Source: Patescibacteria group bacterium (lineage in GTDB: Bacteria; Patescibacteriota; Patescibacteriia; Patescibacteriales; BM507). Taken from it: a stretch of DNA of 64,000 nucleotides. The position numbers and the translations under genes were made by a program. Below the pieces are notes generated by a model, which did not search any database, was not told the origin of the DNA, and saw nothing but the letters and a program-made list of their open reading frames with translations. The stretch is from positions 29,826-93,825 of the forward strand of contig JAQIDC010000055.1 of assembly GCA_027858235.1 (NCBI GenBank), in the 5' to 3' direction. Shown here one piece after another: positions 2,599-61,082 of the stretch. The stretch's first letter is position 1, and each line of letters begins with the position of its first letter.

Positions 2599-2911
2599 AA
2601 TTCAACTATGTGAACATTGGGAGTTTTTTGAGAAAAAAGAAAAACAGCTTTCTAATTCTTTATTATTAATGTGAGTATTGATAAATTTTGATAAGAGACG
2701 TGCGTAGAAAGCTCAATAAAATGTCCGCTGTTTGAGGAATGTAGTGTTAACGAAATGACGAGTTCGGAATTTTATTAGCTTTCATAGCTAAGTATCCAAA
2801 ATTTATCACTAGCGAACGATTTTGGTACTTTTTTAAAAAGTACTTAATAAAAAGGTTCTAACACAAGTTCAAATTGATACACTGTAATTCTCACTTATTA
2901 ACAGTGAGAAT

Positions 2912-3008
2912 AAAAACACACCCCGCCCATACGGGCACCCCTCTCAAGAGGGGATTTTTACAAATATCTTATTTCTGGATTCCGGACCCCTCCAGAGGCG
3001 GGCAGGCA
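2912..3008. repeat. Degenerate copy of the GC-rich palindromic element seen intact at 59100..59195
   Basis: 2912..2960 (AAAAACACACCCCG-n-CACCCCTCTCAAGAGGGGATTTTTA) matches the left arm of the 59.1-kb element. 2985..3008 (ACCCCTCCAGAGGCGGGCAGGCA) resembles a decayed right arm. Confidence 0.5.
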
Positions 3009-5226: not shown

Positions 5227-6288
5227 TTAATTTTGTTCTTCTTTTTGTTTCTCCTCTAGAGAAGATTCTTTTTTACTTTTAATTTTTTGAAAAATATATC
5301 TCCCAATTTTATATAAAAAGAATATTGTTATTATTAACAATAACACACCAATGGTTATTATTAAATAGTCAAAATTCAGTGCTTTTTTAATATTGGGTTC
5401 TTCGGGAATGTATTCTACACTTCTTTCATTGCCTGCCTTATCAATGGCTTTTACTTTTATAATACTTCGTAGGCTTTGATCTGTGAGCAGAAAAGGAGTC
5501 TCTGCTATTTTCCACTTTGCCTCCTCTGATTTTACGAAAAGTTCCAATACCTTTTCTGTTAATGTTTTTTTAACTGAGAGACTTTTTGTTTCAATTAACT
5601 CATAGTGATCGATTCCACTCTGCTTGTCTATGCTAGAAAAAATAGCAAAATATTGACCCTGGTACATATTGTCTCTCTGATGCAATTCAATAACGAATGG
5701 TTCTGGTTTTGTTTTATCGCTTTTGATTAGTCTGTCATAGTCACCTACTTCAGCTCCAACTGTTTTATTTAAAACAAGACTTAAATTTTCAATCCTTAAT
5801 TTGTCCTCAGTTCCAAGGCCATCATTAATATATACTTTTGCATCTTCGAGCTTTATATCAAGAGTGTCTGGAATAGTGTCACCAACATAAAAACTAGGGA
5901 TTCTAAAAAGTATTCTTCCCACCAAATTACTATTACCGGGATCACCTGGTATTTTACCGCAATAACCACCAGGAATTCCTCCTGCCACATATAGCTCACC
6001 ACTATCATTTGCATCAAATACATCAGTTTCTGACGGTTGGTCCACCCAAACATTTAAGAGAGATTCTCCTGTTATAAAATCTTCTATATACAAAATACCA
6101 GTTGGAAATGTAATCTTAGCTTCTACCGTATTAATACAAACATCATCAATATCTAGACTAAAATTAACAGTAAAAGCATCACCAAGGTGGTATTCATTTT
6201 TTTGAGCATCAAGACTAAGTGAAGCAGCCTTAGTGTAGGCAGGAATAAGTAGGAATATAATCAATGTAGCGAATAAGTATTTTTTCAT
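5227..6288 (-). CDS. Membrane-anchored surface protein with cohesin-like N-terminal domain and C-terminal TM anchor
   Basis: 353 aa. Signal peptide MKKYLFATLIIFLLIPAYTKA. Contains ELYVAGGIPGGYCGKIPG...LVGRILFRIPS, the family motif. C-terminal helix LIITIGVLLLIITIFFLY followed by a K/E tail. Confidence 0.55.
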   Translation of the reverse strand: MKKYLFATLIIFLLIPAYTKAASLSLDAQKNEYHLGDAFTVNFSLDIDDVCINTVEAKITFPTGILYIEDFITGESLLNVWVDQPSETDVFDANDSGELYVAGGIPGGYCGKIPGDPGNSNLVGRILFRIPSFYVGDTIPDTLDIKLEDAKVYINDGLGTEDKLRIENLSLVLNKTVGAEVGDYDRLIKSDKTKPEPFVIELHQRDNMYQGQYFAIFSSIDKQSGIDHYELIETKSLSVKKTLTEKVLELFVKSEEAKWKIAETPFLLTDQSLRSIIKVKAIDKAGNERSVEYIPEEPNIKKALNFDYLIITIGVLLLIITIFFLYKIGRYIFQKIKSKKESSLEEKQKEEQN

Positions 6289-6300
6289 ATATATAATAAT

Positions 6301-6436
6301 TTTAAATTCTAAGCACTAAACCATAAACACTAAACAAATTATAAATTCTAATATTAAAATACTAAACTGTTTTAAACTTTTATGCTTGTAATTTTGAATT
6401 AGTTTAGAATTTTAATATTAGAATTTAGAGTTTTTT
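6301..6436. repeat. Long AT-rich intergenic palindrome (family copy 1)
   Basis: Perfect 18-bp inverted repeat AAATTCTAATATTAAAAT (6343..6360) / ATTTTAATATTAGAATTT (6409..6426), nested in imperfect TCTAAA/TTTAGA arms. The left arm carries TCTAAGCACTAAA and the centre carries CTGTTTTAAAC. It ends 3 nt from the stop at 6439. Confidence 0.75.
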
Positions 6437-6438
6437 CC

Positions 6439-7707
6439 TTAACCTGTCCAATAATACATCATTACAGAAAAATCAATTAAATCAACTACTCCATTTTGGT
6501 TTTGATCCGCACATTCATTATCTGTTCCCCAATGGTAAAGAAGTATAGAAAAATCTGTAATATTTACTCTCTCGTCACCATTTAAATCTGCTTCGGCACA
6601 AACAGCCTCTCCTCCAACCGTGCCAACAAAGAAACTAATAGACTTTGAAAAACCACTTTGCAGGGTATTGTCAGCTGAGGCAATAGTAAATAATGCTTTT
6701 GCAGTGTGAAACTCTTCTTCCAAGGGTTCTGTATTGAAAATTAATTCCCATTTTCCATCATCTGTACTTTCAATTGAATTGATAAATTCCTCTGGTGAAT
6801 TAATATGAACATTTACTCCTGATTCTGGAACTGTACTTCCAAAAACTGTTACTGTGTCTCCTCTTGTAACTGTTTTTTTATCTATATCTATTGTTGGGGA
6901 AATATACACCCCAGAGATATTGGTGACAGCTCCTAATGTTACTCTAAAAGTTAGAGAAAGCAAAGTCGATTTGAGACCAACGGGGTCTTCTGACCAAAAA
7001 CTAAAACTAGCAACACCAGCGGAAATTTCATCAGTTTCAAAATAGAAATTTGCCAATGTATCAGTTCTTGAAATACCTATAACCTTACCATCAAGAAGTA
7101 TTTGAACATCTGAATTTGGGTATGATTTGCCACGGACAATAACCTTGGTCTCGCCTGGTGGTACATCAGATCCAGGGTTAAAGCCGGTGGTTAATCCTGA
7201 ATTTCCACCAGTTGATCCTCCTCCACCTCCGCCAGAAGGGACATCAAAGCTTTCGCAATTTTCCAAACTAATACGACAATCAGCTGTACATATTAATGAA
7301 CCGGAGGTAAATCCAAAAGTGATACACGTCTGCTCATTATAATCAGCACCATCACATTCTTCAGAATCCTCCTTAATATTGTTTCCACAATTATAGCAAC
7401 CACTTGTGTCATAATCCGTGCAATCTGACAAGCAATCAAGATCGCCTGAATTATAATATTCTCCTGATGCGTATTCAAAGTCTAGACAAGTTAGTCCACT
7501 TACATCAATTGGAAATACAGGAGGGTCTCCTGGGTCACAAACCTCTAGTCCTTGGATAAAACCATCGCCACAAACCAGCAAAAGAGTAACGGAAGTCAAA
7601 AGGTTTTCCTGCGTTGCCGCCCTCAAACTAAATGGAGAAAGAACCAAGGAAAAAATGGCCAGATAAAATATAGAATACCTCAATTTTTCTTTTAACAAAG
7701 TTTGCAT
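6439..7707 (-). CDS. Secreted protein: Cys-rich repeats, Gly-rich linker, Ig-like domains, C-terminal dockerin
   Basis: 422 aa with a signal peptide. CGDGFIQGLEVCDPGD and CGNNIKEDSEECDGADYN resemble Myxococcus-type cysteine-rich repeats. There is a GGGGGGSTGG linker. The C-terminus DLNGDERVNITDFSILLYHW...DQNQNGVVDLIDFSVMMYYWTG is two EF-hand-like dockerin repeats. Confidence 0.7.
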   Translation of the reverse strand: MQTLLKEKLRYSIFYLAIFSLVLSPFSLRAATQENLLTSVTLLLVCGDGFIQGLEVCDPGDPPVFPIDVSGLTCLDFEYASGEYYNSGDLDCLSDCTDYDTSGCYNCGNNIKEDSEECDGADYNEQTCITFGFTSGSLICTADCRISLENCESFDVPSGGGGGGSTGGNSGLTTGFNPGSDVPPGETKVIVRGKSYPNSDVQILLDGKVIGISRTDTLANFYFETDEISAGVASFSFWSEDPVGLKSTLLSLTFRVTLGAVTNISGVYISPTIDIDKKTVTRGDTVTVFGSTVPESGVNVHINSPEEFINSIESTDDGKWELIFNTEPLEEEFHTAKALFTIASADNTLQSGFSKSISFFVGTVGGEAVCAEADLNGDERVNITDFSILLYHWGTDNECADQNQNGVVDLIDFSVMMYYWTG

Positions 7708-10887: not shown

Positions 10888-11355
10888 TTAGCTAGCTTTA
10901 AAGCTTTTTACAACATCTTCTATGTTATCTATTATCTTATAATAAATATTATCATCTAAATTTTTTGTTTCATGCTCAGAAAATACAAAATCAGAAATAC
11001 TATTTGAGCCTATTATTTCATCTCCTTCTGAAAATTCTGATTTTTCTTTATGGAAAATACTAAATAAACTTATTTCATCACTTACTCCTCTCACAAAATA
11101 AAAAGTGACGGTATCCCCTTGTTCTTTTATCCTATAGTTTCCTTCCCAATAATCAGGGATGGCTAGGCTTGCTTTGTTTAAACCAGCAAGAAAAAAATTT
11201 ACACGAGAATATGTAGTTACGATTTCTGCATTCTCCTTCTCTGGAATACCCCAGGCTTCATTTTTTTGATTATTGTTTTTATTATTATAAGAAAAAAGTA
11301 GTAAAATTATTATTACTGTTAGTCCTAATGTAATTATTGCTTTTTTTATTGTCAT
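10888..11355 (-). CDS. Small N-terminally anchored hypothetical protein
   Basis: The ORF-track start at 11379 is TTG. The ATG at 11355 (MTIKKAIITLGLTVIIILLLF) lies 1 nt after the permease stop and gives a clean signal-anchor. No recognisable motif. Confidence 0.45.
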   Translation of the reverse strand: MTIKKAIITLGLTVIIILLLFSYNNKNNNQKNEAWGIPEKENAEIVTTYSRVNFFLAGLNKASLAIPDYWEGNYRIKEQGDTVTFYFVRGVSDEISLFSIFHKEKSEFSEGDEIIGSNSISDFVFSEHETKNLDDNIYYKIIDNIEDVVKSFKAS

Positions 11356-11356
11356 A

Positions 11357-12553
11357 TTAACTATATCTAATAGCTTCAAGTGGGCTAAGCTTGGCTGCTC
11401 TTTGGGCTGGGAAAAGGCCAGTTAAAAATCCCATTACAGCTGAAAATATTGCTATAAAAGTAAGGAAGGGTATCGGAAATCTAAACAGAGAGATTGCTGT
11501 CCCACCCATTTTGAGTGCAATTGAATTTAGGAGAAAATTAACAGCCAATCCACCACCAACTCCGATTCCCATCCCCACAATCCCTCCCAAAAATCCCATA
11601 ATAACTGACTCTGTTAAAAATAGAGTTTTAATGGCCGATGGTGACCCGCCTATGGTTCTCATAATTCCTATCTCTTTTGTGCGTTCCAAGAGCGTAACTG
11701 TCATGGTGTTAAACATACCAATGGCCGATACGATTAAAGCAATTCCACCAAAGGTAGCAAGAGTAGCCTGGATTCCTTTAAAAATTTTATTAGCCTGATC
11801 AACTGTTTTAGATAGGGCGGTTACCATAAATCCCTTGTCTAGAATTTGAGCTTCTGCCGTATCTAAAAATTCATTACTGACGATCTTCACTCTAGCTTTT
11901 TCATAATAAGGTATTGCAAAATTATCTTCAAACTCAGTTAATGGAATATAGGCAAACAATGAAGCCTGGTCATCAACAACAGCTGATATTATATATTCTC
12001 TAGACATTGGTACTTCAATAACATCTTCTGAGTCTAGTTTTGGAATAAATACTTTAAATCGAACCCCCTGACCGATAGCATCTTCTGGTTCTATTCCAAA
12101 AAGTTTTAAAACTGCGGCCGATATAGCAATTTTATTTTTGTCTCCCTCAACGTACATTGATCCTTCGGCTGCTATTACGCCAGCGTAAGAAAAGTATGCT
12201 GGTCTAGCTCCTTGCAACATAATACTTCCTGTTAAATCTCCCAAGGTAACGAGGGAAGTAAAACTAGCCATGGGTTCAACTGCTTCAACGTTGTCTAGCT
12301 GATAGAATTCTTCTACCATTTCATCATCAATAATAACTACTTTCGATGGAGGGGTTCCTACATTTAAACTGAGAAGTGCTTCGCCAAATACAATCTTTTC
12401 AAGCAATACTCCCTGCAAACCATACCCAAGGCCAACCAAAACAACTACGGCGGCAATACCAACCCCAATACCAACGATTGTCAACCAAGTCCTTGCTGGC
12501 TTGGTCTTAAACATTCTTGTTGACAATTTTAATGAATCTTGAACTCTAATCAT
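11357..12553 (-). CDS. ABC transporter permease, FtsX/MacB type (4 TM with large extracytoplasmic domain)
   Basis: 398 aa. N-terminus LSTRMFKTKPARTWLTIVGIGVGIAAVVVLVGLG, then a loop of about 220 aa, then a C-terminal FtsX-like 3-TM block (RTKEIGIMRTIGGSPSAI...). Confidence 0.8.
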   Translation of the reverse strand: MIRVQDSLKLSTRMFKTKPARTWLTIVGIGVGIAAVVVLVGLGYGLQGVLLEKIVFGEALLSLNVGTPPSKVVIIDDEMVEEFYQLDNVEAVEPMASFTSLVTLGDLTGSIMLQGARPAYFSYAGVIAAEGSMYVEGDKNKIAISAAVLKLFGIEPEDAIGQGVRFKVFIPKLDSEDVIEVPMSREYIISAVVDDQASLFAYIPLTEFEDNFAIPYYEKARVKIVSNEFLDTAEAQILDKGFMVTALSKTVDQANKIFKGIQATLATFGGIALIVSAIGMFNTMTVTLLERTKEIGIMRTIGGSPSAIKTLFLTESVIMGFLGGIVGMGIGVGGGLAVNFLLNSIALKMGGTAISLFRFPIPFLTFIAIFSAVMGFLTGLFPAQRAAKLSPLEAIRYS

Positions 12554-12566
12554 ATTTATATAAATA

Positions 12567-12692
12567 AACTCTAAATTCTAATATCTAAACTCTAAACAAT
12601 ATCTAAACTCAAAATTCTAATATCAAAACAGTTTTGAACATTTGTATTTTAACATTAGGATTTATTTAGGATTTAGGATTTAGTGCTTAGAT
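12567..12692. repeat. Long AT-rich intergenic palindrome (family copy 2)
   Basis: Left arm of TCTAAA-type units (12567..12620), centre AAACAGTTTTGAAC (12626..12639), and right arm TTAGGATTTATTTAGGATTTAGGATTTAGTGCTTAGA (12655..12692). Lies downstream of the stop at 12751. Confidence 0.7.
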
Positions 12693-12750
12693 TTTTTTAA
12701 ACATTAAATATCGTAAAATTTAATTAAAAACTATAAATTTAAAAATAAAC

Positions 12751-14073
12751 TTAATGGGCCGCCTTCACTTCAAGCCCTTGAGTAATTAATTTTTCAAAAT
12801 ATTCTGTCACATTTCTGGCGGACACTTTACTAAAACCGACTCCCCCTTTTTTTGTACTCGCTTTTAATTTCTTATAAAAATCTTCTTTACGGGAAACACC
12901 AGATATTCTCTCCCTAACAGCTTCTCGCATCATCCTTAGTCTGTAGGGGGTCATTTCTCCTTTATATTCTTCTAAAACATATTTAGTTAATTTATTTACT
13001 ACTCTGTCTTCCTTGGAAAAGAAAATATTGTGCTCAAATCTTCGTCTATATCTTCTAACATCTTCTGATTGATTTATAATATGTTCAACTTTTTCAGACA
13101 TTGTTTCAGAAACTGACTCAGATAAACCAACGCCTCCTTCTAAATATTTCCTTGAGAGTTCCTTCATAAATTCATCTTTGCCCATCTTCCTTTCAACCAT
13201 TTTCCCAATTAACTCTTCTAACCTTATTATCTTATCAAAGCTTATATCTTGTGTTAAATAATTTACTAAAGATTTTACCTTTAGTACAACAGGGGTGTCA
13301 TATGGATACATTTTTGAAAGCTGATCCATTTCTGAAACAAATGTTTTTTGTCTATCTACTTTTGCAATTTGTTTTTTGTCAGGATTTGGAACAATTCTTT
13401 TTAATTTACCATCTCCCATATAAAAAACTCGATGCGAATACATAAGCTGGGCAGCATTATGAGTGATTAAAATAATTGTTGTTTTTTCTGTTTCATTAAT
13501 TTCAGCCAACAAATCCATAACTTGCTTTGTCGAAACTGAATCGAGATTCCCCGTCGGTTCATCCGCTAGAAGAATCTTTGGATTATTTACCATTGCCCGA
13601 GCAACAGAAACCCTCTGCATCTGTCCACCAGAGAGATCGGCTGGGAATTTACCCCCTTGGCCAGTTAAACTTACTCTCTCTAGGAGCTCGTTTCCTCTTT
13701 TTTTTCTTTTTTTCTCATTGTATCCAAGAAAAGTTAAGGGCAGGGATATATTATCAATAACTGAAAGAGAATTTATTAAGAAAAATGCTTGATAAATAAT
13801 TCCAATGGTTTTCGCTTGAAAATCCACCATTTGATCTGGAGTATATGTATAGGGATTATCTCCATTCACATAAAGCTCCCCAGCTGAAGGTTCTAGAATT
13901 CCAAGGATAGAATAAAAAATAGTTGATTTACCACAACCAGAAGGACCAAAAAAAGATATAACCTCTCCTTCATATATTTCTGAAGTTACTCCCCTGGTTG
14001 CCTTAAATTCATTTTCCTTACCAAGGTTATAAGTAATTTCTAGGCCTTTAGTTTTAATTATTGGTTGTGGCAT
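12751..14073 (-). CDS. ABC transporter ATP-binding protein (MacB/LolD-like) with a roughly 210-aa C-terminal extension
   Basis: Walker A GPSGCGKST, signature LSGGQMQRVSVARA, Walker B ILLADEPTGNLD. Residues from about 230 to 440 are an extra helical, charged region containing an internal duplication. Confidence 0.85.
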   Translation of the reverse strand: MPQPIIKTKGLEITYNLGKENEFKATRGVTSEIYEGEVISFFGPSGCGKSTIFYSILGILEPSAGELYVNGDNPYTYTPDQMVDFQAKTIGIIYQAFFLINSLSVIDNISLPLTFLGYNEKKRKKRGNELLERVSLTGQGGKFPADLSGGQMQRVSVARAMVNNPKILLADEPTGNLDSVSTKQVMDLLAEINETEKTTIILITHNAAQLMYSHRVFYMGDGKLKRIVPNPDKKQIAKVDRQKTFVSEMDQLSKMYPYDTPVVLKVKSLVNYLTQDISFDKIIRLEELIGKMVERKMGKDEFMKELSRKYLEGGVGLSESVSETMSEKVEHIINQSEDVRRYRRRFEHNIFFSKEDRVVNKLTKYVLEEYKGEMTPYRLRMMREAVRERISGVSRKEDFYKKLKASTKKGGVGFSKVSARNVTEYFEKLITQGLEVKAAH

Positions 14074-14076
14074 ATT

Positions 14077-14155
14077 TTAGTTAAAAGTTAAAAGTGTAAA
14101 GTTAAAAGTTTTTTAAAATACTACTTTCAACTTTCATCTTTTAACTTTCTACTTA
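14077..14155. repeat. AT-rich intergenic palindrome (variant sequence, same placement)
   Basis: GTTAAAAGTTAAAAGTGTAAAGTTAAAAG pairs imperfectly with the reverse complement of TTTCAACTTTCATCTTTTAACTTTC. It fills the gap between the stop at 14159 and the start at 14073. Confidence 0.6.
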
Positions 14156-14158
14156 TTT

Positions 14159-15787
14159 CTACATTTTTATATTCTTAACCCATCCGAATGTTCCTTCGAA
14201 GTTCTTTAGAATTATATCAATAATACTTTCCTCTCTAGACGGAGTTAACATTGTAAAATCTTGAGATTTTGCCATATTTTGTGCATCATCATGGCAAACT
14301 ATCCAAAACTTGTATACATTAGCTGGAAGAAAGTTAGTAACGACCTGTACATGGTCAGACACATAGTCCTTTTCCTCTGGGAGTATTTCGTCTCCATCTA
14401 ATGACACAATGCCTCTGTGATAATTAAGCTGACATTTTGAGGCCTCATCGGTTTCATAGGAAATTATAGTCTGAACTTTATTGTCTGAACCTGGGTACAG
14501 GGTTGATTCTGTATTTACTTTTGTTATTAGTGGTGGTTCAGCATCCCTAGTTGTAATAAAAGTTAGGGGGTCGGAAACAGATTTTTCATTTTGTTCATTT
14601 TCTACTGTAACGACCACGGAGTAATAGGTATCAAAAATAAGATTATTTAATTTAATCATATGACTACTTAAATAAGCTGACTGACCTTCTAACTTGGACT
14701 CTCCTGTATTTAGGTTTGTGTATTCTATGATAGCAGCAGTTGGGATATTCGTTGAAAAAGCTATGGTTGCCGAAGTTTCCTCTACTTTAGAAAGACTTAA
14801 GTTCTGAATAATCGGCAAGACAGACTTGGTCATAAATGTGCCGTCACTGCTTTTGGCTTCTTGATCTAGAATGGTTTTTGAGGATACTTGAAAATGATAA
14901 GTAGTGGCTGGCTCTAATCCAGTTATTTCAATTCTATGCTCCAAAACAGTTTCATCTGGCTCTCCTTCATTCCAGGTGTATGGATCATCAGCTTCATAAT
15001 TAAAGGTTTCATCAAGAGCAAGAGATACTATTGAGTTTGCCTCTTTGTTTGTTTGCCAATAAATAATTGCATAATCTGTTCCCACTTCAATATTAGCATT
15101 GTCTAGTATGATAGATAGTTCGCTCGCAACATCCTCGGCAACAGCCTGAATATGCTCTTCAATAATTTCCAATGTTTTCTCTTCTTGCACTTGTTCTATT
15201 TTTTCTAGAATTTGCATTAAGAGTTCTTTCTCTTCTATCTCTTCTACTTCCTCGAGTTGTTCCATGTCAACGTCAATTTTAACATTTCCCTCTTGATCAA
15301 CTCCTGAAATATCGTCTCCAAACATTTCTGAACAAACCGACAAAATATCATCTTCTAGGTTCCCGTAGGCATAGTCCCTGTCGTATTCAGTTTGGAAAGT
15401 AAAGTCATTGGATAATTTTTGATTACCAGACTCGTCGGTAGAAGTAATCCTAAAAAAATACTGCATATTAGGGATAAGATCCGCCAAAAGTATCTCGTGT
15501 TCTGTTTTATCAAAATGAGGGCTCCTCGAAACTCCGTAATTTTTATCTAAACCATAATTAATTAATGAATCTGTTTCTTCATCTGTTTTCCATTTAATTA
15601 AAGTGGATGTCGCGGTAACATCAGAAACTACTATTTCAGAAATATCTGGAGTGGTCTCGTCATCAGCAGCCTCTGCCAAATTTACTTTTTGCATTTGCAT
15701 AAATACAAAAATACCCAAACCTAAAACTAATAGACTGGCTACTACAAACATTACTAGATTTACGATAAAAAATTGTTTTGCTTTCAT
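14159..15787 (-). CDS. N-terminally anchored protein with about four FN3-like domains and an acidic coiled-coil spacer
   Basis: 542 aa with a strong SD (AAGGAGGAA). TM helix FFIVNLVMFVVASLLVLGLGIFVF. The FN3-like block SDVTATSTLIKWKTDEETDSLINYG...YFFRITSTDESGN recurs (ATIAFSTN..., AIIYWQTN...). The central segment is E-rich (EQLEEVEEIEEKELL). Confidence 0.6.
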   Translation of the reverse strand: MKAKQFFIVNLVMFVVASLLVLGLGIFVFMQMQKVNLAEAADDETTPDISEIVVSDVTATSTLIKWKTDEETDSLINYGLDKNYGVSRSPHFDKTEHEILLADLIPNMQYFFRITSTDESGNQKLSNDFTFQTEYDRDYAYGNLEDDILSVCSEMFGDDISGVDQEGNVKIDVDMEQLEEVEEIEEKELLMQILEKIEQVQEEKTLEIIEEHIQAVAEDVASELSIILDNANIEVGTDYAIIYWQTNKEANSIVSLALDETFNYEADDPYTWNEGEPDETVLEHRIEITGLEPATTYHFQVSSKTILDQEAKSSDGTFMTKSVLPIIQNLSLSKVEETSATIAFSTNIPTAAIIEYTNLNTGESKLEGQSAYLSSHMIKLNNLIFDTYYSVVVTVENEQNEKSVSDPLTFITTRDAEPPLITKVNTESTLYPGSDNKVQTIISYETDEASKCQLNYHRGIVSLDGDEILPEEKDYVSDHVQVVTNFLPANVYKFWIVCHDDAQNMAKSQDFTMLTPSREESIIDIILKNFEGTFGWVKNIKM

Positions 15788-48004: not shown

Positions 48005-48054
48005 TAAAATATAATTTTATTTTAAAATATTTTAAGAAGAGAGGAGGTGATAAT

Positions 48055-48327
48055 ATGGCAACAAAGAAAAAAGCAGTAAAAAAGAAAGTAGCTAAAAAAC
48101 CAGCGAACAAAAAGGTGGTTAAAAAAGTAGTTAAAAAAGCTGCTCCAAAAAAGAAGGTGGTTAAGAAAGTAGTTAAAAAAGCTGCTCCAAAAAAGAAAGT
48201 GGTAAAAAAAGCTGCTCCAAAGAAAAAAGCTGCTCCAAAAAAGAAAGTAGCTAAAAAACCAGCAAAGAAGAAAACTGTTAAAAAAGCTGCTCCAAAGAAA
48301 AGAGTAGTTAAGAAAAAAAAGAAATAG
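48055..48327 (+). CDS. Lys/Ala/Val-rich histone-H1-like basic protein
   Basis: 90 aa made almost entirely of KKAAPKKKVVKK-type repeats. Has a strong RBS, its own promoter box and a terminator. The underlying DNA is an imperfect tandem repeat of about 42 nt. Confidence 0.65.
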   Translation: MATKKKAVKKKVAKKPANKKVVKKVVKKAAPKKKVVKKVVKKAAPKKKVVKKAAPKKKAAPKKKVAKKPAKKKTVKKAAPKKRVVKKKKK

Positions 48328-48373
48328 TCTTCATATAATTTAGTTTTAATACTAAAAATCTAGGGAGAAAAAA

Positions 48374-50885: not shown

Positions 50886-50911
50886 CAATCTAAAAAATTT
50901 ATCCAAATTTT

Positions 50912-50975
50912 TAAAACTGTTTTGAATTTATTATTTTGAAAATTTTAGTTTGTTTAGAATTTAAAATTTAGTGCT
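50912..50975. repeat. AT-rich intergenic palindrome family, half copy (centre plus right arm)
   Basis: Centre AAAACTGTTTTGAAT (50912..50926). Right arm TTAGTTTGTTTAGAATTTAAAATTTAGTGCTTAGGATTTG ends 14 nt from the stop at 50989. Confidence 0.6.
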
Positions 50976-50988
50976 TAGGATTTGTTCC

Positions 50989-52761
50989 CTATCCTGTCCA
51001 ATAAAACATCATAATAGAAAAATCGGTCAAATCAACATTCCCTGAATCATTTTGATCTGCGCATGCATTGTCTGTATTCCACCAATAAAGCATAATAGAA
51101 AAATCGGTAATGTTTACCTTCCCATCGCCATTAAGATCTCCGTTGGCACACTCAGTTGTTTGTTCTTCTACCTGTTCACCTACTCCAATATTTATTATGC
51201 CCGAGAATTCCGAATAGCCTAAACCCTCCTTGTATGATCTGGCTTTTAATCTATATTGCCCGCCAAATGCTTCGTCCGTATTTAAGATAATATTCCAAAG
51301 ACCCAGAGAATCAACATCTGCTTGTTGTTTTATAATTTCCTCTTCTCTGAGAGCTCTTTCGAGATAGGGATAAAACCATACTTCTGTAAAAGTGCTGGCC
51401 GCCCCATAGCCGTGCAATGCCATTGAATTCCCTGGGTCAACTTCCATAATACTTGTATTGAGGGTTGGTGATATGAAAATATCTGAAACAGCTGATTTGG
51501 TCCCCTCTTCAACATAAAAGGTTGTGTTATAAGTTAATGAATTTTTTCCTTCACGATCAGCTGCCCAAATGCCAAAAGTATAAACTCCACGAGGAAGCTC
51601 ATCTATCCCAAGACTAAAAACCCCAACACTATTTGCTAAAACATTTTGACTGGCTACTCCATCGACTAGCAGATAAACTCTGCTGCCTGGGTATGCAAAG
51701 CCTGAAAACTCAACTGCCGGGTCAGCTAGAGGGACATCATATGGATCAAGTGTACCAGAAGTGACGCCTGTTCCTCCTCCGCCGCCACCATCAGTTCCGC
51801 CATCATCAACAAGTTCATCTCCAATGCCATCCTCTGTAGATGTAGAATCACTATCCCCTGTTCCAACTTCCCCCTCAACTGATTCAACATAAAAAAGAAT
51901 TACATAGTCATCAATATCATCAACAGCATATTGATCTCGACATCGTATATAATATGCATGAAAACCACCAGTAAGGGCTGTTAGAGTTTCTGAATGAAAA
52001 TAGTTCCCAGTATATCCAAAATCATCTGTCATTGAAGTAAAGGGAGTATTTGAAGCTGTCGAATAACGACAATCAGCACTATAATTGCTTACTAAAGACA
52101 TAATGGTTGAAACAGTTCCAAAAGCAAGTGTTCCCGAAGGAGAACCACGTGATCTTATTTTTGGCATATACGATGAAACTGTTACAGCCTCTACTATTGC
52201 TACCATTGGTTCTGCTCTATCTAGAAGATTATTAGAGCTATCAAAAGTTTCAACCTCAAGTCCATAGGAGCCTGCATCTCCTGGATTGATAATATATGTA
52301 TCTCCAAATTCTTCATGGACAGCAATGTCACCAATTTTTATTTGAACATAAGCTCCGGCTGGAATACCTAAATTATTTCGAAGGGTTATTTCAATCGCGG
52401 AGGTAGTTGCTGACCCTGTTATTGAAACTCCATCAGCGGTAAAAATAGGAAAAGAAAACAAATTTCTTTCAACATACCCAGTATCTCTATCTGTTGAAGT
52501 TGCTAAATCAATATCAGTATAATCAAGAGCAACTGGGATTAAAAAAAAGTTATCTTCTGGAGAAATTTTTATTTTCCCACTTGGCGGAATAGCTTCTGTT
52601 GTCCTAAATTTTATTGTATGATTTGCTTGATATCCTGGACGAGAAGTAGTAATATAGTCACTAATTTGTGTTAAATTTTTTGCTTCAATTTTAGGAGCAA
52701 CAGAAAAAACCATCACTGATAGCAATAAAATAATTTTAATTTTCCTATACAATTTATTCAC
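50989..52761 (-). CDS. Secreted chimeric protein: N-terminal domain of the 57742/59343 subunit family, Gly-rich linker, Ig-like domains, C-terminal dockerin
   Basis: The track start at 52848 is TTG and overlaps the upstream gene. GTG at 52761 gives VNKLYRKIKIILLLSVMVFSVAPKIEA, a clean signal peptide. ISDYITTSRPGYQANHTIKFRTT aligns with VSDTISTSAPTTLANHTVGFTT. C-terminus DLNGDGKVNITDFSIMLYWW...DQNDSGNVDLTDFSIMMFYWTG. Confidence 0.7.
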   Translation of the reverse strand: MNKLYRKIKIILLLSVMVFSVAPKIEAKNLTQISDYITTSRPGYQANHTIKFRTTEAIPPSGKIKISPEDNFFLIPVALDYTDIDLATSTDRDTGYVERNLFSFPIFTADGVSITGSATTSAIEITLRNNLGIPAGAYVQIKIGDIAVHEEFGDTYIINPGDAGSYGLEVETFDSSNNLLDRAEPMVAIVEAVTVSSYMPKIRSRGSPSGTLAFGTVSTIMSLVSNYSADCRYSTASNTPFTSMTDDFGYTGNYFHSETLTALTGGFHAYYIRCRDQYAVDDIDDYVILFYVESVEGEVGTGDSDSTSTEDGIGDELVDDGGTDGGGGGGTGVTSGTLDPYDVPLADPAVEFSGFAYPGSRVYLLVDGVASQNVLANSVGVFSLGIDELPRGVYTFGIWAADREGKNSLTYNTTFYVEEGTKSAVSDIFISPTLNTSIMEVDPGNSMALHGYGAASTFTEVWFYPYLERALREEEIIKQQADVDSLGLWNIILNTDEAFGGQYRLKARSYKEGLGYSEFSGIINIGVGEQVEEQTTECANGDLNGDGKVNITDFSIMLYWWNTDNACADQNDSGNVDLTDFSIMMFYWTG

Positions 52762-52783
52762 TCTGTAAAAAATATTTAATTTC

Positions 52784-53200
52784 CTAATTACTGACGTGTT
52801 GTCTCGGCATTGTATTGGACTTCTTTTTTCTCCGCCAATCCATAACAAAGTTAATCAAAATAAGTAAAAATAAAACAACTATTCCTATTATCATCCCCCA
52901 GATTACTTTATTTTGTAGGACTGAGCTTGCAGATTTCAAATCTGTTTCTCTTTTGTCTAATTGAGACTCTCTGGTGTTTAGCCAATCTTCCTTGTCCTTC
53001 AATTGAAGGGCCAGTGTATTCATCGGGTTTGGAGGGACAGAAGCTGAAGAGCCTATCCCAACCGCTCGGGAGAAATTTGCTCCCAAATATTTTGTATAAT
53101 CAATTGGACTAACACCGACAGTATGCAAAAACGAAAATAATATAAAAGAAAATAATAATATTCTAAATTTATGAATATGTTTTACAGTTTTTTTTAACAC
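52784..53200 (-). CDS. Small bitopic membrane protein with coiled-coil ectodomain (hypothetical)
   Basis: 138 aa with a GTG start. N-terminal helix FRILLFSFILFSFL, central coiled coil (QLKDKEDWLNTRESQLDKRETDLK), and C-terminal helix MIIGIVVLFLLILINFV. Confidence 0.4.
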   Translation of the reverse strand: MLKKTVKHIHKFRILLFSFILFSFLHTVGVSPIDYTKYLGANFSRAVGIGSSASVPPNPMNTLALQLKDKEDWLNTRESQLDKRETDLKSASSVLQNKVIWGMIIGIVVLFLLILINFVMDWRRKKKSNTMPRQHVSN

Positions 53201-53211
53201 AAATTTTAATT

Positions 53212-53336
53212 TAAATTCTAACCACTAAATTCTAAACAAATTCTAATTTTTAAAACCCAAATTTCTAAAGCTGTTTTGAATTTTAAATTTAATTTTTTGT
53301 ATTTATTTAGGATTTAGTTATTAGAGTTTAGAGTTT
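53212..53336. repeat. Long AT-rich intergenic palindrome (family copy)
   Basis: Left arm TAAATTCTAACCACTAAATTCTAAACAAATTCTAA..., centre AAAGCTGTTTTGAAT (53268..53282), and right arm ...TTTAGGATTTAGTTATTAGAGTTTAGAG. It ends 10 nt from the stop at 53346. Confidence 0.7.
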
Positions 53337-53345
53337 TTTATCTAT

Positions 53346-54185
53346 TTACTTCACGCATCTAAATCCAACACCAATACCAATATAGGAAGGCTGGGAAACC
53401 AAATATGCAGAATATACTCCTGCCTCTTCTTCATTTGAATAAAAACCACCACGAGCAACTCCTCTCACTCCAGTGTTTTTAATCCAGAAATAATCATTTT
53501 TATAATTATCACTAGGGCTATCACTAATTTCAATTGCTATTCCATCAGCATTAGCTTCATATACAAAACCTTGACTAGGGAGTATTTCACCATTCAATTT
53601 TCCGTCACTTATCGTTTCGTCTGTCCACTCCCAAACATTCCCGATCATATCAAAAGCACCAAAAGAAGAAACACAAGTCTCACCACTACCAGTAAGCCCT
53701 GGTTGGTTCTTCCAGTTTTCCGCTACCTGGCAATCGCTAGTTAGCCACAATGAATTCTTATCTGGTGTCCCCAGTGAAGCGCTTAGCCATTCTTTATTAG
53801 AAGGAAGTCTTTTCCCGGCACGTGCGCAAGCCTCTCTGGCTTGGGTTTGAGAAATATAAACCCAAGGGATAGCTCCTTCAGCTGAGGCTGGTTTACAATC
53901 AGCATTTGTCATATTAAGTCTAGAATCTCTTTGACTACCAGTATCTTTGTTTGGACAACCATTTCCAGCTGATGCTTCATATTTATCAATACAAAAACCA
54001 CCACCAGAGGAAGGGATATAGGCCATATCAGAAGGACAAAGAGAAGATTCTTTCTCACCACCCAAAAGTGAATCGCTTGCTTTAATCCCAGCGGTCGCTA
54101 AAACAACCGCTAAAACAGAAATAATAATTTCTCTTTTCCCAATAAAGCTCTTTTTCTTTTTTGTTAAATCTATTGTTTGCGACAT
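53346..54185 (-). CDS. N-terminally anchored FGE/SUMF1-domain (C-type-lectin-fold) protein
   Basis: 279 aa. TM IIISVLAVVLATAGI. Motifs FCIDKYEAS, RLPSNKEWLSAS, GNVWEWTDE, ARGGFYS and GFRCVK are the hallmark blocks of the formylglycine-generating-enzyme fold. Confidence 0.75.
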   Translation of the reverse strand: MSQTIDLTKKKKSFIGKREIIISVLAVVLATAGIKASDSLLGGEKESSLCPSDMAYIPSSGGGFCIDKYEASAGNGCPNKDTGSQRDSRLNMTNADCKPASAEGAIPWVYISQTQAREACARAGKRLPSNKEWLSASLGTPDKNSLWLTSDCQVAENWKNQPGLTGSGETCVSSFGAFDMIGNVWEWTDETISDGKLNGEILPSQGFVYEANADGIAIEISDSPSDNYKNDYFWIKNTGVRGVARGGFYSNEEEAGVYSAYLVSQPSYIGIGVGFRCVK

Positions 54186-57654: not shown

Positions 57655-57689
57655 ATAAAAAAATCGGACTATTATAGTCCGATTTTTTT
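57655..57689 (-). terminator. Bidirectional rho-independent terminator downstream of 57742..58782
   Basis: Stem ATCGGACTA pairs with TAGTCCGAT (57663..57683), flanked by an A-run and a T-run. Confidence 0.65.
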
Positions 57690-57690
57690 A

Positions 57691-57736
57691 TGTTACACGT
57701 TATGTGTTACTTGTTCTGTGTTACATGTTATGTGAT
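57691..57736. repeat. Tandem GTTACAYGTTATG-type units (3 copies) immediately 3' of the stop at 57742
   Basis: TGTTACACGTTATG TGTTACTTGTTCTG TGTTACATGTTATG. The same unit recurs at 59294..59320 after the paralog's stop. Confidence 0.7.
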
Positions 57737-57741
57737 ATCAA

Positions 57742-58782
57742 CTAATAAGTTGGAGTCGCAATATAAGTTAATGTAGTACTATAATCACCTGCTTCTTGCA
57801 AAGCATCGATTTCAACTGAATATGCTATATTGGATAAACCTTTATCGGCTGTTCCACTTGAAGATGGACCATCGTGAGCCATAATAACAGACGATGTACC
57901 AACTGATAATCCGGTATAAAATCCATTAGTATAATTGACCACGCCATTGAGTCCATCACTATCATCAGTTGCAACACCAATGTGCCCCCAAGTAGTTATG
58001 TCAGCTAAGTCTCCAGTCGGAGATGCCCAATCTGTTGGGGTGGTGGTTGCCGAACCTTCAACAAAACTATCAATGATAGCCCCCGCTGCAGTTCTGAAGT
58101 CATCATTTTGGGTTACAGTTACCTGGAAACCAGCAGATGCATTTGTTGTTACTCCTAGTTGTTGACCAACAACATACTGTGTCCCTGGCAAAATATCACC
58201 AAAAGGAGTTGTTGTTGCAGTTGAGGTTGCTGTAATCGTGTCTCCGTTTACCGTTTGACCAGCATCTACACCTGCAACTGCAAATGTTAGAGTTGAGTCA
58301 ACGTGAGCAGTAACAGTTACGGTATCAATAATAGCAATTTTTACTATTGATGATTCTTGTAAGACATCAGTGCTAAGGTATGTTCTAACCTCAATGTCGT
58401 AAATTCCTGCTGTAGGATTTGTGACAGCATCCACTAGAAAGGTGTATGGAGTAGAACTAGCAAGAACACCAGTAAAGGTACATCTTGCAATTTCTGTTGA
58501 TTGCACACTTTTTGTAGTGGTTGCTGTTGCTGGACAAGTGATATTGTCAACAAGAACATTTCCAAAAGTAGCGGGTACTTCAACTTCAACATAGCCACCA
58601 GCATCAAGATCAACGCCTGTTGTGAAACCAACAGTATGATTAGCTAGAGTAGTTGGAGCTGAAGTTGAGATTGTATCACTAACGGCCGATAGTGATGCAG
58701 CCTGAACCATCGGGATGTAAGCGTATGACGACATCATTGAAAATACAACAATAAGCGTCAGTACTTTTCTTAATTTTTTCAT
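57742..58782 (-). CDS. Secreted subunit-like protein (T/A/V/G-rich) sharing the C-terminal domain of giant protein 2; ends ...QEAGDYSTTLTYIATPTY
   Basis: The ATG at 58782 (MKKLRKVLTLIVVFSMM...VQAAS) matches the paralog's start, whereas the track start at 58839 is TTG. The N-terminal domain is shared with 50989..52761. The C-terminal roughly 190 aa are shared with 59343..60437 and 61083..64000. Confidence 0.6.
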   Translation of the reverse strand: MKKLRKVLTLIVVFSMMSSYAYIPMVQAASLSAVSDTISTSAPTTLANHTVGFTTGVDLDAGGYVEVEVPATFGNVLVDNITCPATATTTKSVQSTEIARCTFTGVLASSTPYTFLVDAVTNPTAGIYDIEVRTYLSTDVLQESSIVKIAIIDTVTVTAHVDSTLTFAVAGVDAGQTVNGDTITATSTATTTPFGDILPGTQYVVGQQLGVTTNASAGFQVTVTQNDDFRTAAGAIIDSFVEGSATTTPTDWASPTGDLADITTWGHIGVATDDSDGLNGVVNYTNGFYTGLSVGTSSVIMAHDGPSSSGTADKGLSNIAYSVEIDALQEAGDYSTTLTYIATPTY

Positions 58783-58913
58783 GGGAATTGAAAATATTAA
58801 TTTTTTAATTTTTTTGTTTAAAAACAAGCTTGTTTTCAATTGTCTATTTTACCGAGTCGACCTTTTGCCGCATGGGGATCACGAAGCAGGCTCAGTCCAA
58901 AACAATTATTGTT

Positions 58914-59049: not shown

Positions 59050-59088
59050 AAAATATCCTGTGGAAAAAGTTTATCCACAGGATATTTT
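59050..59088. other. Perfect 15-bp stem hairpin in the intergenic region
   Basis: AAAATATCCTGTGGA (59050..59064) pairs with TCCACAGGATATTTT (59074..59088) around a 9-nt loop. Confidence 0.7.
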
Positions 59089-59099
59089 ATTGTTATTTT

Positions 59100-59195
59100 A
59101 AAAACACACCCCGTCAGCAAAGCTGCCACCCCTCTCAAGAGGGGATTTTTATTCCCCTCTTGAGAGGGGTGGCACGAAGTGACGGGGTGTGTTTT
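59100..59195. repeat. 95-bp GC-rich near-perfect palindrome (REP/MITE-like or strong bidirectional terminator)
   Basis: AAAACACACCCCGTCA pairs with TGACGGGGTGTGTTTT (16 bp). TGCCACCCCTCTCAAGAGGGGA pairs with TCCCCTCTTGAGAGGGGTGGCA (22 bp) around the loop TTTTTAT. Each arm also contains its own CCCCTC/GAGGGG mini-hairpin. Confidence 0.8.
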
Positions 59196-59253: not shown

Positions 59254-59287
59254 ACAAAAAAACTAGACCCCCAGTAGAGGTCTAGTT
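59254..59287 (-). terminator. Rho-independent terminator downstream of 59343..60437
   Basis: Stem ACTAGACC (59262..59269) pairs with GGTCTAGT (59279..59286), followed on the minus strand by TTTTTTGTATTTT. Confidence 0.6.
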
Positions 59288-59293
59288 TATATT

Positions 59294-59320
59294 TGTTACA
59301 TGTTATGCGTTACATGCTAT
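59294..59320. repeat. Tandem GTTACAYGYTATG-type units (2 copies) 3' of the stop at 59343
   Basis: TGTTACATGTTATG CGTTACATGCTAT. Same motif and same placement as 57691..57736. Confidence 0.7.
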
Positions 59321-59342: not shown

Positions 59343-60437
59343 TTAGTAAGTAGGTGTTGCGATATATGTAAGGACTGTTTCATAGTCACCCGCTTCCTGT
59401 AATGCAGATATTTCAGTTGTATATGCTACATAGGTCATCCCTTTGTCGATAGTTGACCCATCAGCAGAAGCATCATGGTACATTACCTCAACTGCATTAG
59501 CTGAACCGTATCCATCAAAACCGACATATAGTCCACTATCAAATGTTGCCCCGAAAGTATCTCCTGCTGCCAGGGATAAATCATCTGATGTTAATCCCAT
59601 GTGACCATATGTATTAAATTCATCAATAGTCCCCGCTGGCGAAACCCATGCTTGAGGAGTGGTTGTACCAGTACCGTCTAGAGCATCCCTAAAACTATTG
59701 ATTGTTGAATCACCATCTGATCTTAACTCATCATCTTGATAAACAACTACCGAGTAACCATCATCAGCATTTGTAACAACTTTTAACTCTTGGCAAAGAG
59801 TACTTGACGCAGTCGTACTTAAGGTTCCGAAATCTAGTAGAGTAGATGAAGCAGAAGTATCAATCCCGCAAGTAACACCATTTACTACAGCTGCTGTAGA
59901 CGTTCCTGAAATTGTGAAATTAAGAGTAGATGTAACTCTAGCTGTCATCAAGACATTATCTACAATCGCTGTCATGACATCAATTTGGTCATATACAGTA
60001 CCAGCTCCATCGGATGATTTAATCGTTGTTGTATACATATCAGCGACTGGGTTTGTAACATCAGCAATCGTTAACACATTTACTGTTCCTGTGGCGATAG
60101 TCGTGGTAGCGGCCACAATACATGTAGTTACATTCGATGCAACTTCTGCAAGAGCATCAAAACCAGTAGGACATGTAACATCTCCTGGTACATAACCATC
60201 AAACAAAGCATCCATTGTAATCTCCACTTCGTCACCAGTTACTAATTCAGTGGCTATATTTGTAAATGTGAATTCATGATCTGAAAGTGCTCCTGGGTCA
60301 GAATCTGTCAATGTTTCCTTTGCATCAACCAAGGCATTGACCGCATTAGCGTATGGTATCGCCGGATAGGCTCCATACATTGTCATCATCGATAGCATCA
60401 CTATCCCGATGACTATTTTTTTTCTAAGTTTTTTCAT
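59343..60437 (-). CDS. Secreted subunit-like protein, paralog of 57742..58782; ends ...QEAGDYETVLTYIATPTY
   Basis: 364 aa. MKKLRKKIVIGIVMLSMMTMYGAYPAIPYANA is the signal peptide. Both domains align with 57742..58782. Confidence 0.6.
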   Translation of the reverse strand: MKKLRKKIVIGIVMLSMMTMYGAYPAIPYANAVNALVDAKETLTDSDPGALSDHEFTFTNIATELVTGDEVEITMDALFDGYVPGDVTCPTGFDALAEVASNVTTCIVAATTTIATGTVNVLTIADVTNPVADMYTTTIKSSDGAGTVYDQIDVMTAIVDNVLMTARVTSTLNFTISGTSTAAVVNGVTCGIDTSASSTLLDFGTLSTTASSTLCQELKVVTNADDGYSVVVYQDDELRSDGDSTINSFRDALDGTGTTTPQAWVSPAGTIDEFNTYGHMGLTSDDLSLAAGDTFGATFDSGLYVGFDGYGSANAVEVMYHDASADGSTIDKGMTYVAYTTEISALQEAGDYETVLTYIATPTY

Positions 60438-60955
60438 ATTTTTGTTTTAGTTTTTATTTTTTATATATAAGGATTTAAATCTAATGTTAAGGTGCTATGT
60501 TATTAGCACTTCATGTTTGAATTCGACCTTTTTATTTGAAAGCAAATATAAAAAAATGCTTTCTGTGTTAAACAAAAAGCATTTTTTTATATAAAATATC
60601 AATATTTTATACGATTTGTGTGTTTCTAGAGGAATTCTAGATTTTTTTGCTTTTTGTTTTTATTTTGAGTCTTGCTACTTCTAGCAATATTTTTTTGATT
60701 GATTTGATTGTCAACGATCTGTGTCTTTTTTTAACTTATATTACCATTATACACTATATACTAGTTTTAGTCAATATCAGGAAGTTTATGACTTTGATAA
60801 ACTGCTAATATTAAATGATATTATTATAAATCATGATTTTAACTTTTTTTTAACAAATAGTTATCAACAAGTTATTTTAGCTCTATTTTAATATATATTT
60901 TATTTCTAAAATTATGTTTTATAACATGTTTTATTATTTTTGTATATAAAATGAA

Positions 60956-61076
60956 AACCATAAGCACTAAATTCTAAACAAATACAAAAATCAAAACCAT
61001 AAACAATTTACACCATATTTTTTTTGAATTTAATCTTTTGATATTGTTTAGGGCTTAGACATTAGAGTTTAGAATT
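60956..61076. repeat. Long AT-rich intergenic palindrome (family copy)
   Basis: Left arm AACCATAAGCACTAAATTCTAAACAAA..., right arm ...TGTTTAGGGCTTAGACATTAGAGTTTAGAATTTTT. It ends 7 nt from the stop at 61083. Confidence 0.7.
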
Positions 61077-61082
61077 TTTCAC

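Follow-up and report, generated by a model that had tools for sequence, protein, structure and literature searches.

Palindromic elements built of inverted heptad arrays at gene junctions of a Patescibacteria contig and in other bacterial and phage sequences

Palindromic elements in the 64-kb window

The window analyzed here is a stretch of 64,000 nucleotides from contig JAQIDC010000055.1 of a Patescibacteria group bacterium, in which nearly all genes lie on the minus strand. It derives from contig Ga0534205_000014 of the JGI metagenome 3300051640. A family of long AT-rich palindromes, placed directly past the stop codons of such genes, had been described from this stretch (hereafter, the original prediction). 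We recovered the repeat elements at the places listed there, as four full copies and one half copy and far above chance. The minus-strand ORF stops given for them (6439, 12751, 50989, 53346, and 61083) agreed with our ORF calls, and the placement directly past stop codons was confirmed. In three of the window copies, the end of the element lies approximately 10–20 nt ahead of the next start codon, a feature that had been missed. No strand was assigned to any of the elements.

The full palindrome E1 (6301–6436; profile match 6304–6434, E 9e-18) lies between the stop of a dockerin-domain gene (6439–7707, minus), at a distance of 2 nt, and the start of the gene 5227–6288 (minus), the ATG of which follows after approximately 12 nt. 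The perfect 18-bp inverted repeat claimed for this copy is genuine (AAATTCTAATATTAAAAT / ATTTTAATATTAGAATTT), and the predicted fold contains a 19-pair run, with energies of −24.9 kcal/mol for the sense RNA and −31.0 kcal/mol for the antisense RNA. E2 (12563–12698; profile match 12565–12696, E 1e-23) is located in a 197-nt gap between an ABC ATPase gene (12751–14073, minus) and a MacB/FtsX permease gene (11357–12553, minus), and interrupts this ABC ATPase and MacB-like permease gene pair (11357–14073, minus; Pfam ABC_tran, MacB_PCD, and FtsX). E3 (53203–53339; profile match 53212–53337, E 2e-19) lies 6 nt past the stop of an FGE-sulfatase-like gene (53346–54185, minus). E4 (60949–61079; profile E 5e-18) is full but more degenerate, lies 2–3 nt past the stop of a gene for a 2309-aa fn3-repeat protein that extends beyond the window edge, and is followed downstream by approximately 510 nt of promoter and terminator DNA before the next gene.

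The half copy (50902–50984; profile match 50890–50984) consists, on the sense strand, of the 5' (CTAAA-type) arm and the centre and lies 4 nt past the stop of a dockerin-domain gene (50989–52848); its second arm is replaced by promoter-like DNA (TGTTATAAT) of an HSP20 gene. E1 and the half copy both lie within a longer stretch of duplicated sequence that reaches the dockerin C-terminal coding sequence of both upstream genes and is approximately 75% identical (6364–6486 versus 50914–51036, 76%; 6500–6605 versus 51050–51155, 74%). This extension into the dockerin coding sequence indicates that at least one copy was propagated with the 3' end of a paralogous gene.

Clusters of at least four TTAG per 60 nt were found at the five element sites only in the 64 kb. 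A 31-nt degenerate right-arm pattern matched all five copies exactly and was fitted exactly by both arms of E2; with up to two mismatches, it gave eight matches in the window versus none in 100 shuffles. The family profile, built from 24 copies, detected exactly five places in the window (E 1e-23 to 9e-7). No further copies occurred in 15 kb of additional flanking sequence of the contig, so that the density is 5 copies per 79 kb; if our reading holds, one recognizable sequence family constitutes approximately 1% of the contig DNA analyzed. Comparison of the window copies between two assemblies from different samples showed identical palindromes without variation in heptad number. Elsewhere, the same two assemblies (L204 versus L205; second sample, JGI 3300051638) differed by a 32-nt shift in or beside ORF 10888–11379 (window positions approximately 10966–10997) and, beyond the window, by a 10-nt indel that leaves the ArgRS gene split.

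Heptad architecture and folding of the elements

The arms follow a strict 7-nt period of five conserved and two variable bases, which the original prediction had not recognized: the 5' arm is composed of NNCTAAA heptads and the 3' arm of TTTAGNN heptads. Based on an alignment of the window copies with 20 copies from elsewhere, the element is AT-rich, approximately 100–150 nt in length (typically approximately 130 nt), and without an ORF. Each half-element comprises approximately eight heptads, the outer four being NNCTAAA / TTTAGNN and the inner ones NNCAAAA / TTTTGNN. Read 5' to 3' on either strand, the order is AAA, four NNCTAAA units, the junction AAACAAAT, two or three NNCAAAA units, a centre formed by the small palindrome CAAAAC-N3-GTTTTG, and the mirror image, which finishes with four TTTAGNN units and TTT. 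TAA or TAG is present in all three frames of each arm. Half-elements were also found singly, in either orientation; those of the CTAAA form tend to adjoin stops and those of the TTTAG form starts.

The 5-nt cores are nearly invariant and the 2-nt spacer positions look saturated, a combination that resembles purifying selection on each heptad (for example, as a binding site) rather than neutral decay. Units inside one array differ at both spacer positions, indicating that the heptads have not been copied in tandem recently. Different organisms share position-specific variants such as CTAAGCACTAAA, which favors common descent of the whole module over convergence; the CTAAGCACTAAA sub-variant is shared mainly with copies from Patescibacteria-labelled records. 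Three Patescibacteria loci (L007, L064, and L073) carry the same small hairpin, TTTCTTTTGCGAAGCAAAAG, directly beside the element, which suggests a larger composite unit in that subfamily.

The window copies folded at −22 to −31 kcal/mol, with z-scores of −1.5 (E4) to −6.5. Folding in the minus-strand sense had been proposed as a check, and for 29 copies with known gene direction the sense and antisense folds were equal (mean −34.7 and −34.6 kcal/mol, respectively). The sense strand was the more stable in 14 of these 29, and folds ranged from −17 to −53 kcal/mol across both strands. G-U and A-C mismatches were balanced within copies; neither these counts nor the fold energies revealed a strand bias or an intrinsic orientation of the element.

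The compensatory substitutions that the original prediction had proposed as a test did not appear. Across 24 copies and 49 mirrored pairs, 78.0% of the cells could pair versus 79.5% in column shuffles, and 499 of 500 shuffles paired at least as well as the observed alignment. The covariation score of these 24 copies was 0.117, compared with a shuffled mean of 0.137, and RNAalifold retained just 12 pairs, all invariant. At the free positions of mirrored heptads, the match rate was no higher than chance and at some positions lower. A structured RNA family kept by base pairing was accordingly not supported, covarying substitutions being absent from the 24 copies. The absent covariation and the independent variation of the arms point to a palindrome that represents two inverted copies of one conserved module. 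No window sequence matched Rfam at the gathering score, and a search with one copy at a permissive E-value threshold returned a chance miRNA match alone (E 3.4); a tRNA scan of the window found none.

The family is not the only heptad-built sequence in this genome. The differently worded palindrome that had been noted at 14077–14155 proved to be genuine and an instance of the same phenomenon, built from another heptad word (AAAGTTR / YAACTTT, no strand assigned). It folds at −25.5 kcal/mol (z = −6.0) and fills an 85-nt gap that separates the gene 14159–15787 from that of the ABC ATPase; within the contig, 7-nt periodicity was limited to this palindrome and the family elements. A third heptad word was observed in direct, non-palindromic arrays of NNTAACA type (CATAACA TGTAACA CAGAACA ...) at 57689–57734 and 59287–59316, straight after the stops of two paralogous minus-strand genes (57742–58839 and 59343–60437), each array being followed by a canonical terminator with a GC stem and a T-run.

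Placement, junction turnover, and distribution

Placement was surveyed for 47 full-length copies using mechanical ORF calls. None of the 47 lay inside an ORF. Thirty-three copies were located between co-directional genes, one between convergent genes, and none between divergent genes, although the co-directional fraction (33 of 34 versus a background of 88%) was not a significant enrichment. The distance to the upstream stop had a median of approximately 3 nt and was 22 nt or less in 36 of 43 copies, and the distance to the downstream start had a median of approximately 10 nt and was 29 nt or less in 28 of 38. In several copies, the upstream ORF terminated on the first TAA of the element itself. 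The register of the stop codon relative to the heptad lattice fell in phase 0 in 9 of 32 copies and in phase 1 in 8 of 32 (chi-square p approximately 0.05), a signal that is partly trivial because some ORFs end on that TAA. The genes between neighbouring copies were housekeeping genes, such as rpsF and ssb, and several window genes downstream of copies lacked a Shine-Dalgarno sequence. One copy (L068:7-134) ended approximately 10 nt ahead of a tRNA gene, and another (L025:6253-6461) lay approximately 100 nt upstream of a tmRNA gene.

We compared syntenic junctions among 80 related loci; synteny around the ABC ATPase and permease genes was conserved in L124–L131. At the ATPase–permease junction that carries E2 in the window, L124 showed a 2-nt gap (TAAATATG) without an element, its ATPase being 83% identical at the protein level, and L127 showed a 41-nt gap without an element. 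L125 had a degenerate AT-rich insert, and L126, L129, L130, and L131 carried palindromes of the same design with the words AAAGTAG, TTTCTAA, AAAATNN, and AATTACG. The junction of the 14.1-kb palindrome held an AGTARTT-type palindrome in L125, a TTTCTAA-type palindrome in L129, and nothing in L127; this junction and that of E1 exhibited the same variability in relatives as the E2 junction. More distant relatives had direct CTACTNN arrays immediately before start codons. These comparisons indicate that the elements come and go fast at operon-internal junctions and that each genome uses its own word or words. Such quick turnover and genome-specific words are hard to square with a terminator or with a site for a conserved host factor. 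Between the filled E2 site and the empty L124 site, a duplication of TAA is possible, albeit indistinguishable from chance in AT-rich DNA, and no consistent flank repeat or clear target-site duplication was found across 27 copies.

The original prediction had counted both confinement of the copies to the window and a lack of compensatory changes against itself. The latter was observed, as described above, but the family proved to be widespread. A scan of species-representative genomes yielded at least 120 loci and at least 108 profile matches, in a sample biased to copies fitting the search pattern; many of the 8-kb loci contained two to three copies. Palindrome-bearing records included Patescibacteria (several classes), Omnitrophota, Planctomycetota, Deltaproteobacteria, Nitrospirae, Elusimicrobia, and Aminicenantia, and the architecture was found in records labelled as at least eight phyla, the taxon labels being those of the MAG records, as well as in viral contigs. 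Host G+C of these records ranged from 0.33 to 0.53. No grouping of the copies by genome was apparent, mean identity being 0.705 for copies of one locus and 0.689 for copies of different loci, and every window copy had its nearest relative in another organism, a pattern that is not expected from a recent burst of miniature inverted-repeat transposable elements (MITEs). Pure tandem (TTTAGAA)n and (TTTAGAG)n arrays were found, among the matches listed, mainly in records labelled cyanobacteria and Bacteroidota.

On viral contigs, palindromes occurred, among other places, between the tail genes of a phage. One viral contig (L230) showed composite intercistronic spacers in a tail-gene module (approximately 2446–2495, 5700–5800, 6950–7045, and 7080–7165), in which a stop is followed by a CTAAA-type half-element and then by an ACGAGNN heptad array up to the next ATG. 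The CTAAA half and the ACGAGNN array of these composites are non-complementary, indicating that a hairpin is not always present. A BLAST search of E2 against GenBank phages and PLSDB plasmids gave no match, possibly owing to low-complexity filtering. Searching the literature for the sequence string returned bisulfite primers only, and combining CPR terms with MITE or REP terms retrieved no description of such elements. Apparently, the family is uncatalogued in Rfam, the searchable literature, and annotated phage and plasmid records.

Two family members were located within the 23S rRNA gene of locus L022, labelled Paceibacterota (L022:5851-5983 and L022:6686-6808). They sit in the apical loops of helix 25 (approximately 577–583 of the LSU model) and helix 45 (approximately 1206–1226), a position shared by none of the window copies; the link to rRNA comes from this one locus. 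Helices 25 and 45 are the classical sites of 23S intervening sequences (IVSs), which RNase III excises without re-ligation and which are carried by Salmonella, Yersinia, Campylobacter, Coxiella, and others. In a study of rRNA genes from CPR bacteria, short insertions lacking ORFs were reported to be numerous at both helices and were suggested to be such IVSs (PMC11270868). The insertion sites in L022 show toleration of the module at positions that would accept nothing other than a protruding RNA hairpin, and point to RNase III. Moreover, 23S IVSs share with the family a length of approximately 100–150 nt, AT-rich extended stem-loops, sporadic occurrence, and a presumed horizontal transfer; however, they have been described only in rRNA genes, whereas the family copies lie mostly between protein-coding genes. 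To our knowledge, a heptad construction has not been described for IVSs. If our reading holds, the L022 copies provide a concrete sequence link between intergenic palindromes and 23S IVSs, the origin of which has been debated since their discovery.

Relationship to known elements and proposed origin

REP/REPIN, ERIC, and Correia elements can be regarded as functional counterparts of the family among intergenic palindromes, and IVSs as its counterpart in rRNA. The REP/BIME/REPIN and ERIC (IRU) sequences of Proteobacteria are likewise multi-copy extragenic palindromes, transcribed together with the genes whose ends or intercistronic gaps they occupy. Similar to the family, two inverted modules make up one long hairpin in a REPIN, and ERIC, at approximately 127 bp, is close to the family in size. 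In contrast, REP units are palindromes of 20–40 nt that have a 5' end of GTAG type and a RAYT transposase of their own, and the modules of the family are arrays of non-palindromic heptads, whose copies cross phyla without clustering by genome. Neither a RAYT nor a Y1 transposase was present among the window proteins, and together with the non-palindromic units, this argues against an assignment to REP/REPIN. MITEs such as the Correia elements of Neisseria, the hairpins of which are RNase III substrates, are also small and non-coding, with inverted ends and many co-transcribed copies near genes. They differ in being palindromic only at their ends, whereas the whole family element is palindromic; in addition, neither a clear target-site duplication nor a parent insertion sequence was detected for the family, and its copies within one genome diverge as much as copies from different phyla. 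No transposase or integrase was detected in the window proteins or adjoining the copies, and no insertion sequence with a transposase lay between paired copies, where the genes were housekeeping.

Repeats with a 7-nt unit are known as cyanobacterial STRR sequences, long simple-sequence repeats (LSSRs), and the TAACTGA repeats of Beggiatoaceae, which share with the family an intergenic location and a patchy distribution across phyla. These are direct, near-perfect tandem arrays, whereas the family consists of inverted pairs of imperfect arrays in a fixed architecture of approximately 130 nt: period 7 is clear in each arm, but five of seven positions are fixed and the two arrays are inverted. 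Eukaryotic foldback transposons have long inverted arms made of short tandem subrepeats; they are of kilobase scale and linked to transposases, so that their likeness to the family is only formal. The family fails the defining tests for REP sequences, integron attC sites, terminators, and covarying RNAs, and has only the generic properties of MITEs, being small, non-coding, and multi-copy with inverted termini.

The explanation that we favor, to which we give about an even chance of being correct, is that the element is a horizontally spread, ORF-less foldback insertion that is transcribed with its neighbours and folds as a long hairpin of A-U pairs; it would be tolerated, RNase III would probably cleave it, and it would not be an intrinsic terminator. 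Two inverted half-elements joined at the small palindromic centre would form the foldback insertion of approximately 100–150 bp, which would spread horizontally among bacteria with phages as carriers, presumably moved by some enzyme. It would settle in transcribed spacers where an additional hairpin is harmless, namely the gaps between stops and starts and the loops of 23S helices 25 and 45. Transcribed together with its neighbours, either orientation would produce a long, bulged, A-U-rich hairpin. This hairpin would bring the stop and start codons back near each other, and its TAA and TAG triplets would close all three frames, which may be why the element is tolerated. RNase III probably recognizes the hairpin as a substrate, as it does classical rRNA IVSs, and cutting would split or trim the operon transcript, with a possible benefit to the host.

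Alternatively, the heptad rows might be cis-regulatory sites of the host, at which a protein reads the 5-nt core every 7 nt in RNA or DNA and controls translation of the downstream cistron or the coupling of cistrons. Candidate readers include a cold-shock-domain or S1-type single-strand binder, a HutP-like protein, reading UAG at 7-nt intervals, and a ribbon-helix-helix protein similar to omega of pSM19035, which binds 7-bp heptads. Such a reader would fit the nearly invariant cores beside two spacer positions that vary freely without covarying, the equal distance of the copies from one consensus without genome clustering, and the half-elements that behave as separate modules, with CTAAA near stops and TTTAG near starts. 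The non-complementary phage composites and the downstream window genes without a Shine-Dalgarno sequence agree with it as well, and the same idea was proposed for the TAACTGA heptamers of Beggiatoaceae, which often lie just upstream of start codons without a Shine-Dalgarno sequence and the function of which is unexplained (PMC4679880). Nevertheless, related genomes carry entirely different words at corresponding junctions, with no word at all in one of them, which a conserved host factor would not explain, and the same word recurs in very distant phyla. The copies also occur in either orientation without strand bias, those in 23S rRNA helices cannot be translational signals, and no candidate protein was identified; we therefore regard host regulation as unlikely, though tenable. 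Growth of the arrays in place, by replication slippage that expands heptads and a subsequent inverted duplication without transposition, is improbable in our view. It would account for each relative having its own word and for the pure (TTTAGAA)n and (TTTAGAG)n arrays common in cyanobacteria- and Bacteroidota-labelled records, and heptanucleotide repeats are reportedly the most abundant long simple repeats in most of the prokaryotic genomes examined by Mrazek (2007), as cited in PMC4679880. However, independent slippage events would not yield an architecture of approximately 130 nt common to several phyla, with the same AAACAAAT junction, inner CAAAA units, centre, and CTAAGCACTAAA variants. 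The array units are not recent tandem copies, given their different spacers, and strain-level assemblies showed no variation in heptad number.

The position directly after stop codons and the capacity to form a hairpin would also suit a terminator or attenuator of the upstream gene, or a bidirectional or antisense terminator. The original prediction implied such a role, and also stated that the elements lack a clear U-tract; this held for the sense strand, where a run of A5–A7 precedes the hairpin, but not for the + (antisense) strand, on which all four full window copies have a T5–T7 run past the hairpin. That T-run was not kept in other genomes. On the gene strand, the missing U-tract, the A-U-rich stems with a bulge roughly every 5 bp, and the location of E2 inside an operon, where it separates ATPase and permease genes that in a relative are translationally adjacent, make termination unlikely. 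Furthermore, most copies elsewhere end approximately 10 nt ahead of a start codon inside operons (for example, rpsF–ssb), and two lie within a 23S rRNA gene. A terminator scan of the window detected none at the copies and canonical ones with a GC stem and a T-run elsewhere, consistent with the earlier statement that the elements are longer than and unlike ordinary terminators. Taken together, we consider a terminator of either kind very improbable. The elements resemble integron attC sites, which separate gene cassettes, in their size range, their imperfectly palindromic form, and their location directly after stops in a long run of co-oriented genes. The element ends, however, read AAA-NNCTAAA ... 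TTTAGNN-TTT rather than the RYYYAAC / GTTRRRY core, and the closest motif, GTTTAGR, lies inside the element and contains one additional T. With arms that are symmetric and devoid of strand-specific features, flanking genes that are operon partners and housekeeping genes, and no integrase in the window, the attC assignment was effectively refuted and retains hardly any probability. A promoter of the form TTTAGA-N17-TAGAAT within the arrays was considered but not retained; the number of sigma-70-like sites in a promoter scan equalled that in shuffles, so that the scan is uninformative in this AT-rich DNA.

A bolder reading, which we think unlikely, would make the elements a new pan-bacterial, phage-borne class of mobile hairpin cassettes, in which a dedicated machinery reads one 5-nt core per heptad; it would unify the origin of 23S IVSs with the unexplained heptamer arrays at starts and stops. 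If true, this machinery would install the same module between cistrons, as a signal for operon processing and translation coupling, and at the tips of rRNA helices. If our reading holds, the family, present in many bacterial phyla that are among the least studied and in their phages, marks operon-internal junctions and gives experimental access to RNA processing in largely uncultivable groups such as CPR bacteria and Omnitrophota. For annotation, the elements should be masked or labelled rather than called terminators, promoters, or small ORFs, and the pattern of their presence and absence could be used to tell strains apart.

Two further features were observed in the window. Long G+C-rich inverted repeats stand out in this contig of 33% G+C at 59070–59160 and approximately 2900–2943 (minus), as in the example ACACACCCCGTCA...CCCCTCTCAAGAGGGG...CCCCTCTTGAGAGGGG...TGACGGGGTGTGT; a related GAGGGGTGCCCGTATGGGCGGGGTGTG follows the stop at 2944, and these sequences may represent another repeat family. 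At 48040–48330, the + strand, opposite to nearly all genes, contains a short lysine/alanine-rich repeat coding region (KKAVKKKVAKKPA...-like) that resembles histone-H1-like or HU-tail proteins.
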